Source: a virus
Lineage: Duplodnaviria; Heunggongvirae; Uroviricota; Caudoviricetes
IMG/VR virus record: IMGVR_UViG_3300021403_000003
Coordinates: 1 to 49,951 of that record
Length of the DNA stretch: 49,951 bases
Reading direction: 5' to 3' (one strand)
Shown here: positions 4,916 through 14,420 of the stretch, piece after piece
Numbering within the stretch: the stretch's first letter is position 1
Layout: each line of letters starts with the position of its first letter
Notes under the pieces: model-generated
Seen by the model: the letters and a program-made list of their open reading frames with translations, nothing else
The model's database searches: none
What the model was told of the DNA's origin: nothing
Translations under genes and position numbers: made by a program

Positions 4916-5398
4916 ATGTCAGAGCCAAAGGTTACCCAGATCTATAAACTATTCAAGCTTTTGGAATCCGGTGAGCCAGTTCGAATTGATGAAATAGCAA
5001 AGCAGCTCGGTATCAAATACTGGAGCGTAGAGTGTTATGTTCATCAAATGCGTCACCTCAAACCAGTTGCTGCAGAATTAGAGCATCTCAAGGAAGGAAG
5101 GAAAGCGTACGCAATTAAATTACTGAATGCAAAGGATATTGATACTAGAACCTTCATGTATCGCAGTAATAATTCTGTGTATGTGAAACCAGAGTCAATA
5201 TCGAAGGTCAAAGTTGAACCCACCAAGCTTGAACCAAAAAAGGTTCATTCTGATAGATCAGGTATCTGGGTTGAAGGAGACGATGATCTTGCTGAACCAG
5301 TTGTTGAGAAATACAATGAAAAAGAGGTACTAGATACTATGGAGTCTCTTGGTATTGATAATGATCATTTCACTGGGAATTGGTCAAGTGAGATCTGA
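4916..5398 (+). CDS. hypothetical protein, possible N-terminal winged HTH
   Basis: LFKLLESGEPVRIDEIAKQLGIKYWSVECYVHQMR resembles an HTH; acidic tail. Confidence 0.5.
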   Translation: MSEPKVTQIYKLFKLLESGEPVRIDEIAKQLGIKYWSVECYVHQMRHLKPVAAELEHLKEGRKAYAIKLLNAKDIDTRTFMYRSNNSVYVKPESISKVKVEPTKLEPKKVHSDRSGIWVEGDDDLAEPVVEKYNEKEVLDTMESLGIDNDHFTGNWSSEI

Positions 5399-5401
5399 TG
5401 C

Positions 5402-5683
5402 ATGACGTATGTTTTTAAAGTAATCAAGGCATTTGATGATTTAGAGGTTGGCGAAATTATTGAAGTCAACCTTGGCATCAATGACTATGAAAGATTCAAA
5501 ATGGCACATCCAGAATTGGAACGCTATTTTGATGAAGCACCAGCTTTTCAATTTGTAGATATGATTGGTAAACGTGGTCCAGATGGAAAGGTTTTGGATC
5601 GCCTGGATCATATCCGCCGCACTTATCCAGGTGCAAAAAATATGCTGGATGATGCAAGGTGGAAACCAAAGCGTGAGTTTTGA
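5402..5683 (+). CDS. conserved T4-like hypothetical protein preceding the exonuclease
   Basis: Pattern resembles the small gene found upstream of this exonuclease in T4-like phages (HPELE..., GPDG.VLDRL..I...YPG). Confidence 0.55.
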   Translation: MTYVFKVIKAFDDLEVGEIIEVNLGINDYERFKMAHPELERYFDEAPAFQFVDMIGKRGPDGKVLDRLDHIRRTYPGAKNMLDDARWKPKREF

Positions 5684-6357
5684 TCAAAACCTTTACGCAT
5701 CAATTAGTTGATGTTCCAAAACTCGTTCTTGAAGAGGACGATAAGGGTCGAAAATATGTGACTCCAGGAGGGAAGAAATATCCTTCCGTCACTACAGTCC
5801 TAGGTGAACTTCCTAATAAAGCCCTTGCAGCTTGGAAGAAACGTGTTGGTAAAGATCAAGCTGCTAAAATTTCAAAGGCTGCAACAAATCGTGGTTCAGC
5901 TTTACACAAACAGATTGAATTCTATTTGCGCAATGAGAAATTGGACATGTCAAATGATCCATTTACAGCATCATTGTTTGGGAAAGTTCAATCAACATTG
6001 AATGGTATTGATTATATCAAAATCATTGAATCTTCTTTATATTCTGATAGACTTAGGATGGCAGGAACTCCTGATTGTATTGCTGAATATGGAGGAAAAC
6101 TTTCTGTCATCGATTTTAAGACATCAACTGATTTAAAAAAGGTTGATTGGATCAATGGGTACTTTTCTCAGGCAAGTGCTTACGCTATAATGTATGAGGA
6201 ACATTTTGTTGTAAGGCCAGAACAGTGTGTGATTATCATAGCGGTTGAGAATGCCAATATACCACAAGTGTTTGTGAAGTCTATAGATGAAAGCTTTCAG
6301 ATGCTTAAAGAGTATGTTGGTAAATTAATTGAATATCGCAAAGGAATATCTACATGA
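5680..6357 (+). CDS. PD-(D/E)XK (Cas4/RecB-like) exonuclease
   Basis: YPSVTTVLG, RGSALH, AGTPDCI, IDFKTS, QASAYA motifs. Confidence 0.85.
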   Translation: MIKTFTHQLVDVPKLVLEEDDKGRKYVTPGGKKYPSVTTVLGELPNKALAAWKKRVGKDQAAKISKAATNRGSALHKQIEFYLRNEKLDMSNDPFTASLFGKVQSTLNGIDYIKIIESSLYSDRLRMAGTPDCIAEYGGKLSVIDFKTSTDLKKVDWINGYFSQASAYAIMYEEHFVVRPEQCVIIIAVENANIPQVFVKSIDESFQMLKEYVGKLIEYRKGIST

Positions 6358-8009: not shown

Positions 8010-8299
8010 TTTCACTGTTTGATTTGATGAATGGATGTTTTGAAGGGTATGGTGCCTTCGGAGCTTGGTTAAACGTTATCAAGCTTCGAAAAGATAGAGA
8101 AATCAAGGGAATAGTTTGGCAATTGATGATAGGATGGTGGGCTTGGGGAATTTTCAACCTTTTCTATTACCCACATCTCGATCAGTGGTTTTCATTTAGT
8201 GCAGGTTGTGTGTTGGTTACAGGTAATGCAGCTTGGTTGATTACATGGCTAAAGATTCTGAAGATACGCGCACGTAGCTTAAATGTGAAGAGCGGCTGA
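8006..8299 (+). CDS. small three-helix membrane protein (PQ-loop/SemiSWEET-like, tentative)
   Basis: Three hydrophobic segments, about 97 aa. The last 32 nt overlap the tRNA-like gene. Confidence 0.5.
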   Translation: MISLFDLMNGCFEGYGAFGAWLNVIKLRKDREIKGIVWQLMIGWWAWGIFNLFYYPHLDQWFSFSAGCVLVTGNAAWLITWLKILKIRARSLNVKSG

Positions 8300-8341
8300 C
8301 TCTAAATCGGCGAGATGTGGGCACTCAATCCATCGTGCGCT
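8268..8341 (+). tRNA. amber-suppressor-like tRNA (anticodon CUA) with atypical T-loop
   Basis: Acceptor GCGCACG(8268-74)/CGTGCGC(8334-40); T8 A9; D-stem GCTT/GAGC; anticodon stem GCTGA/TCGGC with loop CT-CTA-AA; 5-nt variable loop; T-stem GTGGG/TCCAT with non-canonical loop CACTCAA; U73; no encoded CCA (TCA follows). Confidence 0.75.
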
Positions 8342-10014: not shown

Positions 10015-10092
10015 ATGAAAGAAGATTACGAAGGTTTGTAGATTCCTGACACATATGTTCATTATGTTGCACGTGGTCCGCCATTCCCTTAA
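10015..10092 (+). other. candidate leader uORF with in-frame amber codon and RGPP motif
   Basis: ATG 10015 reads MKEDYEGL-[TAG 10039-41]-IPDTYVHYVARGPPFP-TAA, in the gap upstream of the Pth2-like gene. Confidence 0.4.
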
Positions 10093-10135
10093 ACTATTGA
10101 GCATCCCGTTCAAATCAAGTTTAAGGAGTCGAAAA

Positions 10136-10852
10136 ATGTTGGATTATAAGAAAGTTTGGTCTCACTTTCGTGTAGAAGGAACAGTGACACCATCACATGT
10201 TGTTGAGTTTTGTATCGTCAAGGCTGTATATGCATCTCGAGGAAATGAAAAGAAAGCCGAGAAGCTTCTCATTCAGTATCTATCAAAGGCTTTCACGCCC
10301 ATCACCCGTAAAAATAGGTTGGAAAATGGAGAGCATGAGTATTCATGCTTACAAAGAGCTATTCAAGGTATAAACAAATCATATGTTCTTGGAGTGCCAT
10401 CAATAGCACTCGAAAATTATGAGCTTCTTTATCATAACCTTCTTGATCATTTGACGTATCGTAAAGTTGCAGAATACAGTAAACGTAAGTACATGTATTT
10501 CTTTGTTCGTCAAGATATACCTAGAGAATATCAATTGGTTCAAACTGCTCATGTTGCATTGGTGAATGGTTGGCAAATCGCATTGGATAAAAGTATGGAT
10601 CCTGTTGATCCAAACAATATCTATTTCACTGTTGTTGGTGTACCTAATCTTGCTGCATTGAAGAAAGTAAGAGAAGATTTGCGTCATTTAGAAATTACTC
10701 ATAGTTTGTTTATAGAGCCTGATTTAGGAGATGAAGCAACATCTATTGCAACGTATCCTATCAAGGTTAATGAAAGAGGAAGACTTTTGACTTACAAGTT
10801 ATTGAGTTTTACTCTTACTGAGTTAGACCCTAAGATAGATCAAGTGGCCTAA
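10136..10852 (+). CDS. protein with C-terminal peptidyl-tRNA hydrolase type 2 (Pth2)-like domain
   Basis: KYMYFFVRQDI..EYQLVQTAHVA ... FTVVGVPNL..L ... FIEPDLGDEATSIATYP matches the Pth2 pattern (VRxDL, AQxxHA, EPD, TAIA). AAGGAG SD supports ATG 10136. Confidence 0.65.
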   Translation: MLDYKKVWSHFRVEGTVTPSHVVEFCIVKAVYASRGNEKKAEKLLIQYLSKAFTPITRKNRLENGEHEYSCLQRAIQGINKSYVLGVPSIALENYELLYHNLLDHLTYRKVAEYSKRKYMYFFVRQDIPREYQLVQTAHVALVNGWQIALDKSMDPVDPNNIYFTVVGVPNLAALKKVREDLRHLEITHSLFIEPDLGDEATSIATYPIKVNERGRLLTYKLLSFTLTELDPKIDQVA

Positions 10853-10855
10853 ATA
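10849..10855 (+). promoter_or_regulatory. T4-type late promoter (CTAAATA) at the 5' end of the tmRNA gene
   Basis: TAAATA variant of TATAAATA; the tmRNA base-pairing begins 2 nt downstream. Confidence 0.55.
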
Positions 10856-10856
10856 G

Positions 10857-11200
10857 GTCACGAAATGGTAGTAAACTGTTGATTAAAGGTGTTCAAGACG
10901 CGGGTGCAATTCCCGCCAGGTCCACCAACAGCACACTTGGCCAGAGGTCATGACTGGTCGTTTCTTGATGATGCCGAAAGGCTAACTGGAGTGTGCTTCT
11001 GATGGGCCTGACTAGCTTCGATTGGGCAAGTAATAACCCAATAGCTACCGGATTGGTGACTGCCCTAAGCAGCACAAAACGTTAAATGCAAACGATACTG
11101 CATTCGATGAAGATGAAGGCTTTGTAGAGCTCGCTCTCGCTGCCTGATTCTGAATCTGGGGTTTTGGTGGCTGTCCTTATCACCCAATCAGCCACCACTT
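10857..11200 (+). ncRNA. ssrA: circularly permuted (two-piece) tmRNA
   Basis: The 3' piece comes first: GAC, T-arm GCGGG-TGCAATT-CCCGC, CAGGTCC-A-CCA (ends 10927). The 5' piece starts GGGCCTG at 11004, giving a 7-bp acceptor stem with G3.U70. Long P2 helix between pieces: TGTTCAA/TTGGGCA, ATTA/TAAT, CTGTTG/CAATAG, GGTAG/CTACC, GTCAC/GTGAC. Tag ORF present. The 3' end is approximate (after hairpin 11166-11196). Confidence 0.92.
11088..11147 (+). other. tmRNA tag reading frame ANDTAFDEDEGFVELALAA
   Basis: Resume codon GCA preceded by TTAAAT; AND start and LAA end typical of proteobacterial ssrA tags. Confidence 0.9.
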
Positions 11201-11217
11201 ATATCATGAGGAAGTTA

Positions 11218-11445
11218 ATGGCTACAAGTGCTGATAAAGATCAATTTTCAATCATGATTGAAACAAGGGCCATCAATGATAAATGTAGTCATATTGATGC
11301 CATAATTTCTCATTGTGAGGAAACTGGGTTAGAAATTGAAGTAGTAAAATCTCTTATCAATATTCAACTAAAAAAGAAGATCGAAGCAGAAGCTCGTACC
11401 TTGAGGATGATCAAGGGAGGAAATGCTTCGAGGTTGCCAGTATGA
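11218..11445 (+). CDS. gp33: late promoter transcription coactivator gp33
   Basis: FSIMIE...IDAII.HCEE.GLEIE.VKSLI...LKKKIEAEA..L; GAGGA SD before ATG 11218; T4 gene 33-59-32 synteny. Confidence 0.85.
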   Translation: MATSADKDQFSIMIETRAINDKCSHIDAIISHCEETGLEIEVVKSLINIQLKKKIEAEARTLRMIKGGNASRLPV

Positions 11446-11783
11446 TTGAATTTGAACCAGAAAATCCTTTCAAAACTACATATGGCTTTGAAAGAAGACA
11501 AAATCCGAGGACAAGAGCAAATCTCAACGTTTATTTGGTCACAACTGATCAAAAAAAGAATGAAAGAAAGATAATCAAATTTCAGTCAATAAATATCAGT
11601 CGTTCTGGATTGCTGATTGATAGTGGTGATTTTCCATTCAGAAAGAACTCTTTTGTTGATTTGGCGTTTATGGCACCAATACAAGAAAATGTAAGTCGTT
11701 TGTATTACATGGATGCTTTTGTTCAACATACTGGCAATGGTAAGACAGGTTTCTCGATGACCAAGAAAGGTCCGAAGCCTTGA
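11442..11783 (+). CDS. PilZ-domain protein (putative c-di-GMP receptor)
   Basis: ERRQNPR (RxxxR) followed by INISRSG (D/N-x-S-x-x-G); 113 aa single domain. Confidence 0.75.
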   Translation: MIEFEPENPFKTTYGFERRQNPRTRANLNVYLVTTDQKKNERKIIKFQSINISRSGLLIDSGDFPFRKNSFVDLAFMAPIQENVSRLYYMDAFVQHTGNGKTGFSMTKKGPKP

Positions 11784-12406
11784 GAGAAGTTTCTACTCTT
11801 CAAGAAAAAGCAGGTGGATTTGTTGCTTGGAAATTATTCACAGCTGTAAGAATCCACTATATGAGTGATTCTTATGACTTCTTCAAGTATAATGGTGAAA
11901 CTAAAGCAGCAGCTTCTTGGGAAGTTTTCAAGAATCATCGAGACAAATACAGTTTTGTGAAACTTGGTAGGATGTATGTCAGGGAGGAAATGATCTATTT
12001 CCTTGGAATAAATTTTTATCATAAACCAAACCTTTGGATTCATGATTTGTTCTTTGATGAAGCTATCCAAATTTATAAATCATGGAAAGAACGACAAATA
12101 CAAAACAATCGATTGCAAGAACTTACAAAGCTTGTATCAAGTGGGTTTAAGGAACTGATTGCAATCCATAAAGAGGAGCACCCAAAACTTTTGGGAAGGA
12201 TGTTGGTGAATGATGTTCACCATGATATCATTTGTTTGGTTGATAAATCAGTGAAATTTACAGATGAATGGTTGAATGCATATCCAACTGATCCAATCGT
12301 TCATGGTACAGTTAACAGATTAAAGAAATATAGCAGATTTGTTCAGAACATTATACATTACGATACAACAGCATACGACAAGATAATTGAGGAGTATTAT
12401 AAATGA
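11780..12406 (+). CDS. gp59: helicase loader gp59
   Basis: LFTAVRIHY.SDSYDFFKYNG, RDKYSFVKL; synteny. Confidence 0.85.
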   Translation: MREVSTLQEKAGGFVAWKLFTAVRIHYMSDSYDFFKYNGETKAAASWEVFKNHRDKYSFVKLGRMYVREEMIYFLGINFYHKPNLWIHDLFFDEAIQIYKSWKERQIQNNRLQELTKLVSSGFKELIAIHKEEHPKLLGRMLVNDVHHDIICLVDKSVKFTDEWLNAYPTDPIVHGTVNRLKKYSRFVQNIIHYDTTAYDKIIEEYYK

Positions 12407-13472: not shown

Positions 13473-14420
13473 ATGAGCGATTTCGCAAAACTCCGTCAAA
13501 AATCTTCCATTCAAAATTTGACAACTGCACTGAATTCACAGAACAAATTCAGCCGTGATGAACGTTATTGGGAACCAACTGTTGACAAGGCTGGAAATGG
13601 CTTTGCTGAGATTCGTTTCCTTCCAACACCTCCACAAGATAATGCAGATGGTGATGCACCATTTGTCACAATGTTCAGTCATTCTTTCAAAGGACCAACA
13701 GGTCAGTGGTACATTGAAAATTCATTGACCACCATTGGTTTGGATGATCCTGTTTCTGAACTGAATAGCAAACTCTGGAATAGTGGAGTTGAAGCAAACC
13801 AAAACAAAGCACGTGATCAAAAACGTCGCCTCGGTTACATCAGTAACATTCTTGTTGTGAATGATCCAGGCAATCCTGCTAATAATGGAAAGGTGTTCTT
13901 GTTCCGTTATGGTAAGAAAGTCATGGATAAGATTAAGGACAAGAATGGAACTGGAAGTGAAGTTAAACCAGAGTTTCAAGATCCAGATGATATCAAATTC
14001 AATCCATATAACCCATGGGAAGGTGCCAATTTTAAATTGAATATTCGTCAGGTTGATGGTTTCCGTAACTATGACAAGTCTGAGTTCCGTACCCCAAGTC
14101 AACTTGCAAAGACTGATAAGGAAATTGAGGTAATTTGGCGTCAACAATACAGCCTGAAAGCTGAAATTGCATCTGATAAATTCAAGAGCTACGATGAATT
14201 GAAGAAGAAATTAGAACGTGTTTTGGGTCTCACTAGCACAGGCACTTCATCTTCTACATCAAGTGCTCGTAGAACTGCAGAAGAAGTCAGCCATGAAGAT
14301 TCTGATCGTGAAGAACCTTTGGCAGCTTCTGTTGCAGCTGAAGTAAATACTGCAACAAAATCAACTACGAGTTCAGATGACGATGAATTCGCAGATTTTG
14401 CAAAATTGGCAGATGCTTAA
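13473..14420 (+). CDS. gp32: single-stranded DNA-binding protein gp32
   Basis: DERYWEPTVDKAGNG.AEIRFLP, WYIENSLTTIG..DPV, VFLFRYGKK, GANFKL, NYDKSEF; acidic tail. Confidence 0.95.
   Translation: MSDFAKLRQKSSIQNLTTALNSQNKFSRDERYWEPTVDKAGNGFAEIRFLPTPPQDNADGDAPFVTMFSHSFKGPTGQWYIENSLTTIGLDDPVSELNSKLWNSGVEANQNKARDQKRRLGYISNILVVNDPGNPANNGKVFLFRYGKKVMDKIKDKNGTGSEVKPEFQDPDDIKFNPYNPWEGANFKLNIRQVDGFRNYDKSEFRTPSQLAKTDKEIEVIWRQQYSLKAEIASDKFKSYDELKKKLERVLGLTSTGTSSSTSSARRTAEEVSHEDSDREEPLAASVAAEVNTATKSTTSSDDDEFADFAKLADA

Follow-up and report, generated by a model that had tools for sequence, protein, structure and literature searches.

Two-piece transfer-messenger RNAs (tmRNAs) are known from bacteria and from phages. 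The closest bacterial cases are the tmRNA of Caulobacter (Keiler, Shapiro and Williams 2000, as cited in PMC9004378 and PMC11915505) and the betaproteobacterial type (Sharkady and Williams 2004, as cited in PMC9004378). Among phages, Buchholz et al. 2022 (PMC9004378) reported 53 of 133 unique tmRNA structures as two-piece, with 50 of the 53 coming from marine or aquatic phages; marine T4-like myophages, among them Methylophilales phage Melnitz and pelagimyophages such as Mosig, carry such genes. Mycobacteriophages of the Bxz1 group have one-piece tmRNAs, and phage DS6A has a form reduced to the tRNA-like domain (PMC4131195). Here we describe a circularly permuted tmRNA gene of the two-piece type at positions 10867-11201 of a 49,951-nucleotide (nt) stretch of viral DNA, hereinafter the window, which constitutes the first 49,951 nt of the 176,865-nt IMG/VR virus record IMGVR_UViG_3300021403_000003. 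The phage is complete (CheckV completeness 100%), lytic-type and from soil, and the genes around the tmRNA (gp33, gp59 and gp32) identify it as T4-like. An earlier account of this DNA that used the letters alone (the sequence-only reading) had proposed a permuted tmRNA here; it was right on the identity of the gene and wrong on its rarity, two-piece phage tmRNAs being already known and common in large environmental phages.

The gene is predicted to follow the maturation scheme of that of Caulobacter, with a single precursor in which the CCA-bearing acceptor piece comes first, a spacer removed by tRNA-processing enzymes, and two pieces joined by the helix P2. The Caulobacter gene differs in being chromosomal, in having smpB in the same genome, in its alpha-type sequence and in its 14-residue tag; moreover, its processing has been demonstrated experimentally, whereas the maturation considered here is predicted from sequence. 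The resemblance to Melnitz comprises the permuted order in a T4-like genome, the same slot upstream of gp33, gp59 and gp32, the lack of a phage smpB and the same pseudoknot-like 3' domain after the tag. However, the Melnitz tmRNA is of the alpha type (RF01849, 106.7 bits) with another acceptor and T arm, while that of the window scores best as beta (93.3 vs 62.1 bits). The Melnitz gene is followed by a glutamine riboswitch, of which no match was found at e-values up to 10 in positions 10700-11400 of the window, and its promoter is reported to be an early one (PMC9004378), whereas the window has the late-type motif CTAAATA. The phage of the window further differs in its soil origin, its acidic tag and a gp32 that is only ~52% identical. 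Like the Bxz1 group and DS6A, it is a lytic phage with its own ssrA and without smpB, but those phages have the standard gene order or no tag frame, as against a permuted gene with a complete tag.

Detection and anatomy of the tmRNA gene

Scanning with the Rfam models (cmscan) recovered a full-length match to RF04321 tmRNA_permuted (model positions 1-213) at 10867-11147 (+), with a score of 125.3 bits and an e-value of 3.5e-24. The betaproteobacterial model RF01850 beta_tmRNA matched at 10815-11201 with 93.3 bits and the alpha model RF01849 scored 62.1 bits. All three exceed their gathering scores (47, 84 and 50 bits, respectively), while the cyanobacterial model RF01851 scored 27.1 bits, below its gathering score of 70 bits. 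Thus, the covariance models bear out the circularly permuted tmRNA of two-piece type that the sequence-only reading had put forward. Its constituent elements, together with the motif preceding it, are as follows (bp, base pairs; PK1, pseudoknot 1):

10849-10855, +, CTAAATA, T4-type late-promoter-like -10 motif, overlapping the TAA stop of the upstream gene
10867-10927, +, acceptor piece (RF04321 alignment and covariation in 16 homologues)
10867-10871 and 10890-10896, +, P2 5' strands, in the acceptor piece
10900-10916, +, T arm, stem GCGGG/CCCGC (10900-10904 with 10912-10916) and 7-nt loop UGCAAUU
10917-10923, +, acceptor 3' strand CAGGUCC, followed by the encoded ACCA at 10924-10927 (discriminator A plus CCA)
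10928-11003, +, intervening sequence (spacer) of 76 nt; its closing stem of 8 bp is formed by 10930-10937 and 10990-10997
11004-11087, +, 5' part of the coding piece (model alignment and covariation)
11004-11010, +, acceptor 5' strand GGGCCUG with G3 at 11006, forming a 7-bp stem with CAGGUCC
11011-11021, +, D-loop-like segment
11022-11028 and 11045-11049, +, P2 3' strands
about 11050-11075, +, PK1 region, between P2 and the resume codon
11088-11147, +, tag frame of 19 codons, ANDTAFDEDEGFVELALAA, opened by the resume codon GCA and closed by TGA at 11145-11147
11158-11196, +, 3'-terminal pseudoknot-like domain (folding for stem 2, and the RF01850 model)
11158-11161 with 11175-11178, +, stem 1 of the 3' domain, GGGG with CCUU
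11166-11173 with 11189-11196, +, stem 2 of the 3' domain, GGUGGCUG with CAGCCACC

The gene order is permuted as earlier described: the CCA-bearing 3' half of the tRNA-like domain (ACCA at 10924-10927) lies 5' of both the G1 strand, beginning at 11004, and the tag frame at 11088-11147. Examination of the tRNA-Ala identity elements showed that the pair G11006.U10921 corresponds to the G3.U70 determinant claimed before, that 7/7 acceptor pairs are standard, that A73 is A10924 and that the CCA occupies 10925-10927. The spacer is predicted to fold as a closed hairpin; its 3' end is UGAU right before G1, the predicted RNase P site, and U(G/A)AU stands in this place in every homologue. A conserved UAAAU lies directly 5' of the resume codon GCA at 11088, and no U-run follows the 3'-terminal domain.

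To obtain homologues we searched with a 31-nt degenerate pattern comprising the T arm and the acceptor strand. When 16 phage homologues were given to RNAalifold without guidance, it recovered both parts of the inter-piece helix (distal P2a of 5 bp and proximal P2 of 7 bp) along with the T arm and the acceptor and spacer stems, and 19 of 39 pairs had compensatory changes. By our own count in the homologue alignment, 97.5% of cells are paired in P2a (4/5 pairs compensatory), 100% in proximal P2 (4/7) and 93.8% in the spacer stem (10/12); in a control, shifting the partner columns by 1-2 positions lowered this to 22-52%. As to selection, nothing follows from the T arm and acceptor stem, since their invariance is built in by the pattern search. 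The five-segment inter-piece helix of the sequence-only reading thus stands in part: three segments are supported by covariation (the 5-bp P2a and the 3+3 bp of proximal P2), and a fourth, 10876-10881 with 11039-11044, is plausible from comparison with the closest relative.

Over 340 nt the closest relative (L224/L103) shows 71% identity. In its spacer stem and 3' stem the sequence is wholly unlike that of the window while the pairing is kept, and these compensatory changes point to selection on structure. Both stems of the 3' domain co-vary in the relatives, and the domain also occurs in Melnitz and other T4-like phage tmRNAs with different acceptor stems.

The tag frame opens at the alanine resume codon without a start codon and ends in LALAA followed by the stop, in agreement with the 19-residue acidic tag originally read. 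An N-terminal ANDxxF and the C-terminal LALAA flank an acidic insert; compared with the tags of 30 relatives, this tag is the most acidic (net -6) and of middle length. Across these 30 members, tags span 10-31 residues, nearly all beginning with AN and ending in (A/M/V)AA, and 10 have plain 10-residue tags such as ANDEQFALAA; that of L224 is ANVSAFEEVELALAA. Many of the long tags (L202, L205, L222, L231 and others) look like an N-terminal tag-like module (ANADTF...) with a complete canonical 10-residue tag behind it, e.g. ANDSKFALAA or ANESRFALAA, a two-module layout which suggests that the tag frame was extended or duplicated. In E. coli ssrA tags, the spacing between the SspB and ClpX determinants alters delivery.

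The spacers of several relatives have a further peculiarity: those of L207, L208, L223, L206, L214 and L216 begin with a good Shine-Dalgarno sequence, an ATG and a small open reading frame (ORF), which in L207 encodes a 24-residue hydrophobic peptide, and the Melnitz spacer (L304:2320-2480) likewise has an ORF. A spacer-encoded gene in the window was considered and rejected, as the candidate ORF has only 11 codons, its Shine-Dalgarno sequence lies a mere 2 nt from the ATG, and it is unconserved in L224.

Proposed transcription, maturation and action

We consider it probable that 10867-11201, which bears the sequence and structure hallmarks of a permuted tmRNA, is a functional-looking gene of this soil T4-like phage and that its RNA matures and acts as follows. 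Transcription of a precursor would begin at about 10861, at any rate late in infection, with read-through from upstream as a probable second source, and would continue into gp33. RNase P would cut before G11004, and the tRNA 3'-end enzymes would trim as far as the encoded CCA ending at 10927; the stem-closed spacer would thereby be lost, while P2 would keep the two pieces paired. The compensatory pairs of the spacer stem and the invariant U(G/A)AU before G1 are indirect evidence for this maturation. The alanyl-tRNA synthetase of the host would charge the RNA through G3.U70 and A73, and host SmpB and EF-Tu would carry it to ribosomes that have halted at broken or non-stop mRNAs. Translation would then resume at GCA 11088, adding (A)ANDTAFDEDEGFVELALAA, whose LAA end would direct the product to ClpXP-type proteases. 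The likely benefit is ribosome recycling in the course of an infection in which host transcription is presumably off and mRNA is being cleaved. Reliance on the host for SmpB is inferred from the phage genome: a family search for SmpB (PF01668) found none anywhere in its 176,865 nt, extending the absence that had been noticed for the window, while the same search scored above the cut-off in 10 of 14 control genomes. The phage carries ~30 tRNA genes at 158-172 kb of its genome, which indicates that it invests in translation.

Several observations weigh against this proposal, and some of them would instead fit a decaying, non-functional relic captured from the host or from another phage. At its default threshold ARAGORN called no tmRNA or tRNA in the window; at a threshold of 90% it called a permuted tmRNA with the identical tag but marked this as a possible pseudogene. 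The T loop, UGCAAUU, departs from the usual UUCRANY by a G at position 55. PK1 is weakly modelled, in that the model's 4-bp stem has one mismatch, and a second stem can be drawn from the sequence (11056-11063 with 11069-11075). Minimum-free-energy cofolding of the two pieces did not give P2, although it reproduced the T arm and the acceptor and spacer stems, and the evidence for P2 is for this reason taken from covariation. The one public sequencing run that holds this DNA is a soil metagenome, its probable source, and no RNA run is listed. Furthermore, the tag stop is TGA, as opposed to TAA in 29/29 relatives with a complete tag. Nevertheless, the covariance-model match is full-length with a score inside the 112-153 bits of the relatives, all helices are intact, an open tag frame runs to a proper stop, the spacer and 3' stems show the above-mentioned compensatory changes and the position of the gene is kept in several lineages, so that a relic appears highly improbable. 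The ARAGORN result is best seen as a threshold effect, given the call at 90% and the default calls in 30/30 relatives (28 of them with a tag agreeing with our reading of the sequence; in L216 the tag was started further downstream and L228 had no derived tag for comparison). The unusual T loop is the likely cause of the default miss; the same G55 is present in L224, L351 and L353 and recurs in other T4-like phage tmRNAs. In the D-loop, the window and L224 have AG where other family members have GG, a change that may represent a tertiary covariation. In practical terms, default ARAGORN can overlook a tmRNA gene of this kind that Rfam 15 detects.

A different role for an intact gene would be competition with the host tmRNA for SmpB, with the long acidic tag changing the fate of tagged proteins, such as their routing to adaptors or proteases (which the sequence-only reading had suggested for ClpXP/SspB) or a slowing of their degradation, or else the dampening of tmRNA-dependent host defences. 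Such a phage must take SmpB from its host, and the tRNA-like-domain-only tmRNA of DS6A is reported to inhibit the host tmRNA (PMC4131195, PMC11915505). Tags twice or three times as long as the usual 10 residues are frequent in the family, and in the window the acidic insert sets ANDxxF and LAA apart. However, the retained ALAA end is typical of proteobacterial degradation tags, which favors ordinary ClpXP targeting, and the plain 10-residue tags of 10/30 relatives imply that a special tag is no requirement of the family. We accordingly think this role improbable.

The time of expression hinges on CTAAATA at 10849-10855, which confirms and extends to seven nucleotides the TAAATA late box of the sequence-only reading. 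Between the end of the motif and the first paired base of the tmRNA there is a distance of 11 nt, giving a predicted start at about 10861, 6 nt before that base. Among 7,886 7-mers, CTAAATA has the highest enrichment in the -60 to -10 region of plus-strand genes (12 of 26 copies; binomial p 1.3e-8), with 26 copies on the plus and 3 on the minus strand of the phage genome, and it sits 12-42 nt before the start codons of several genes, including those for the baseplate wedge, tail sheath and head scaffold. The T4 late motif TATAAATA, on the other hand, has only one copy per strand. Aeromonas phage Aeh1 has CTAAATA, beginning at -12, as its published late promoter (Nolan et al. 2006, PMC1524935), and in both phages the same 7-mer stands in for TATAAATA upstream of late-gene orthologues. 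The two differ in that the Aeh1 motif was defined at protein-coding late genes, whereas the copy considered here precedes a stable RNA gene, of which it would offer a concrete case behind a T4-type late-promoter variant. The late-promoter assignment is therefore better supported than expected, on the strength of motif statistics and the analogy with Aeh1; of the late-transcription factors, gp33 is encoded by the phage.

The tmRNA could alternatively be real without being a late gene, being transcribed mainly by read-through from early or middle promoters, with its 5' end made by processing and CTAAATA incidental or of minor effect. Searches of the plus strand flanking the tmRNA gave no sigma-70-type promoter or intrinsic terminator, which implies that transcripts run on into gp33. 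As gp33 is needed before late transcription and lies directly downstream with no terminator or sigma-70-like promoter between, another upstream promoter must also feed the region. In L210, L221, L225 and L209 clear TTGACA-N17-TATAAT promoters precede the tmRNA; the early promoter reported for Melnitz (PMC9004378) is in line with these, and in many relatives the tmRNA begins right after the stop codon of the upstream ORF. Moreover, the overall count of CTAAATA equals the expectation from composition (26 observed vs ~26). Against this, the motif is a 7/7 match to the top gene-upstream 7-mer at the right distance, with a chance of occurrence in a given 10-nt slot of ~0.002 by our own arithmetic (26 copies in 177 kb), L218 and L219 have TAAATA 8 nt before the tmRNA without a -35 element, and read-through and a late promoter are not mutually exclusive. 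Hence, a tmRNA that is not a late gene seems possible, if rather unlikely; as judged from the motif and the Aeh1 analogy, late expression is likely and is probably not exclusive. A 6-bp inverted repeat (GUGGCC/GGUCAC) at 10844-10861 (+) also encloses CTAAATA in its loop; in read-through transcripts this repeat would form a hairpin before the 5' end of the tmRNA, a possible processing or regulatory element.

Distribution among phages and bacteria

The sequence-only reading had regarded a permuted tmRNA in a phage as unusual, a view that does not survive the 53 two-piece structures of PMC9004378. In our searches the acceptor-arm pattern is present in at least 120 IMG/VR contigs, and a full permuted tmRNA scored above threshold in 44 of the 50 tested. 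Likewise, 18 of the 49 T4-like contigs holding the nearest gp32 relatives have a permuted tmRNA, most of these contigs being short fragments. The closest cultured relatives, which reach only ~52% identity in gp32, are Stenotrophomonas phage DLP_6, the Sinorhizobium phiM12 group, Melnitz and HTVC008M. The window thus adds a soil T4-like lineage to the phages with two-piece tmRNAs, which in the literature searched are mostly marine or aquatic.

A blastn search against 50,697 phage records returned a sole match, of 43 nt, in the cultured Xanthomonas phage BUDD (ON758385.1). This phage has an unannotated permuted tmRNA (RF04321, 77.5 bits; L302:1470-1799, ~167.3-167.6 kb) whose tag we read as AANDADYSVARYA, and which lies partly under a coding sequence annotated as a hypothetical protein. 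While the current understanding of tmRNA is unchanged by these findings, their practical value lies in annotation, as the BUDD copy illustrates. BUDD is also a possible laboratory model of the family, and the window a candidate system for the function of phage tmRNAs and their long tags.

As to the bacterial types, the window sequence passes the gathering score of the beta model RF01850 over the full model, including the 3' hairpins, as do 8/8 phage relatives tested (94-130 bits). Its margin is small (93.3 vs 84 bits) and the alpha model RF01849 passes too. In a search of 185,579 species representatives, the acceptor/T-arm pattern was absent from the alphaproteobacterial, betaproteobacterial and cyanobacterial genomes. 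It had 49 scattered cellular matches (Lachnospiraceae, Edwardsiella, Saprospiraceae, Patescibacteria and others), with 3/3 of those checked being one-piece tmRNAs. This 31-nt pattern is uninformative as to the host. RF01850 had no match in 151 sampled Gammaproteobacteria (in the GTDB sense). The 151 sampled Pseudomonadota gave 37 strong RF04321 matches, presumably of the alpha type, and of 12 weak matches that were re-scanned, 4 overlap the one-piece model RF00023 above threshold and 0 pass RF01850. The tmRNA of the window is hence beta-like by Rfam score, a classification in which two models pass and which does not establish membership of a bacterial lineage. A possibility that we consider doubtful is that a diverse 'beta-like' lineage in phages, rather than bacteria, forms the main reservoir of this tmRNA type.

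The conserved gene neighborhood

The tmRNA is embedded in the following genes:

10055-10852, +, upstream gene with a C-terminal PTH2 (peptidyl-tRNA hydrolase 2) fold; likely start at 10136, giving 238 amino acids
11206-11445, +, gp33 late-transcription coactivator (PHROG 254, e-value 3.4e-17), directly downstream of the tmRNA
11442-11783, +, PilZ-domain ORF of 113 residues (PF07238, 25.8 bits; cut-off 22.5), between gp33 and gp59
11780-12406, gp59 helicase loader
13473-14420, gp32 (e-value 7.8e-100)

The likely start of gp33 is the ATG at 11218, after GAGGAAG. The upstream ORF gave no match in Pfam, PHROGs, NCBIfam or PDB by sequence or profile. However, a Foldseek search of PDB with its AlphaFold2 model (predicted local distance difference test score of 81.5) recovered PTH2/Bit1 peptidyl-tRNA hydrolases as the top 8 hits and as 14 of the top 15 (TM-scores 0.67-0.76, probability 1.00), the exception, at rank 9, being a protein of unknown function. 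On the evidence of this predicted structure, the C-terminal half of the product has a PTH2-like fold. The order PTH2-like gene, tmRNA, gp33, PilZ-domain ORF, AAA ATPase and gp32 is kept in the closest relative (L103) at protein identities of 39-62%, with the PilZ-ORF homologue in the same place. The PTH2-like gene adjoins the tmRNA in three further phage lineages, L360, L362 and L103 (39-52% identity). The succession of tmRNA and gp33 is also seen in Melnitz, whose annotated ssrA precedes gp33, gp59 and gp32, and in relatives.

Approximately 1.8 kb upstream of the PTH2-like gene the window encodes a tRNA at 8268-8341 (+) with the anticodon CUA (amber suppressor type), which scored 37.7 bits with the Rfam tRNA model and was missed by ARAGORN. 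Equivalent positions hold tRNAs in L360 (474-550, CUA), L362 (2174-2251, UCA) and L361 (1497-1573, UCA). Suppressor tRNAs are the only tRNAs of the locus in 8 of 122 tmRNA-bearing viral loci, and TAG ends ~10% of the predicted genes of the phage. One might view the tmRNA as one arm of a conserved translation-rescue module before gp33, made up of a suppressor tRNA (CUA/UCA), the PTH2-fold hydrolase and the two-piece tmRNA. The suppressor tRNA would bring about read-through, the tmRNA from its late promoter would clear the non-stop complexes and tag their products with the extended acidic tag, and the PTH2-like enzyme would recycle dropped peptidyl-tRNA. We hold such a module to be doubtful, and the linkage of the three genes could be explained by shared ancestry. 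The PTH2-fold neighbor and the recurring suppressor tRNAs point to a cluster by which large phages may manage ribosome stalling. In L361, where no tmRNA was found in the 6 kb examined, a GOLLD RNA (RF02032, 201.6 bits; 5305-5711) lies in a tRNA-rich stretch ~2.3 kb downstream of the PTH2-like homologue.

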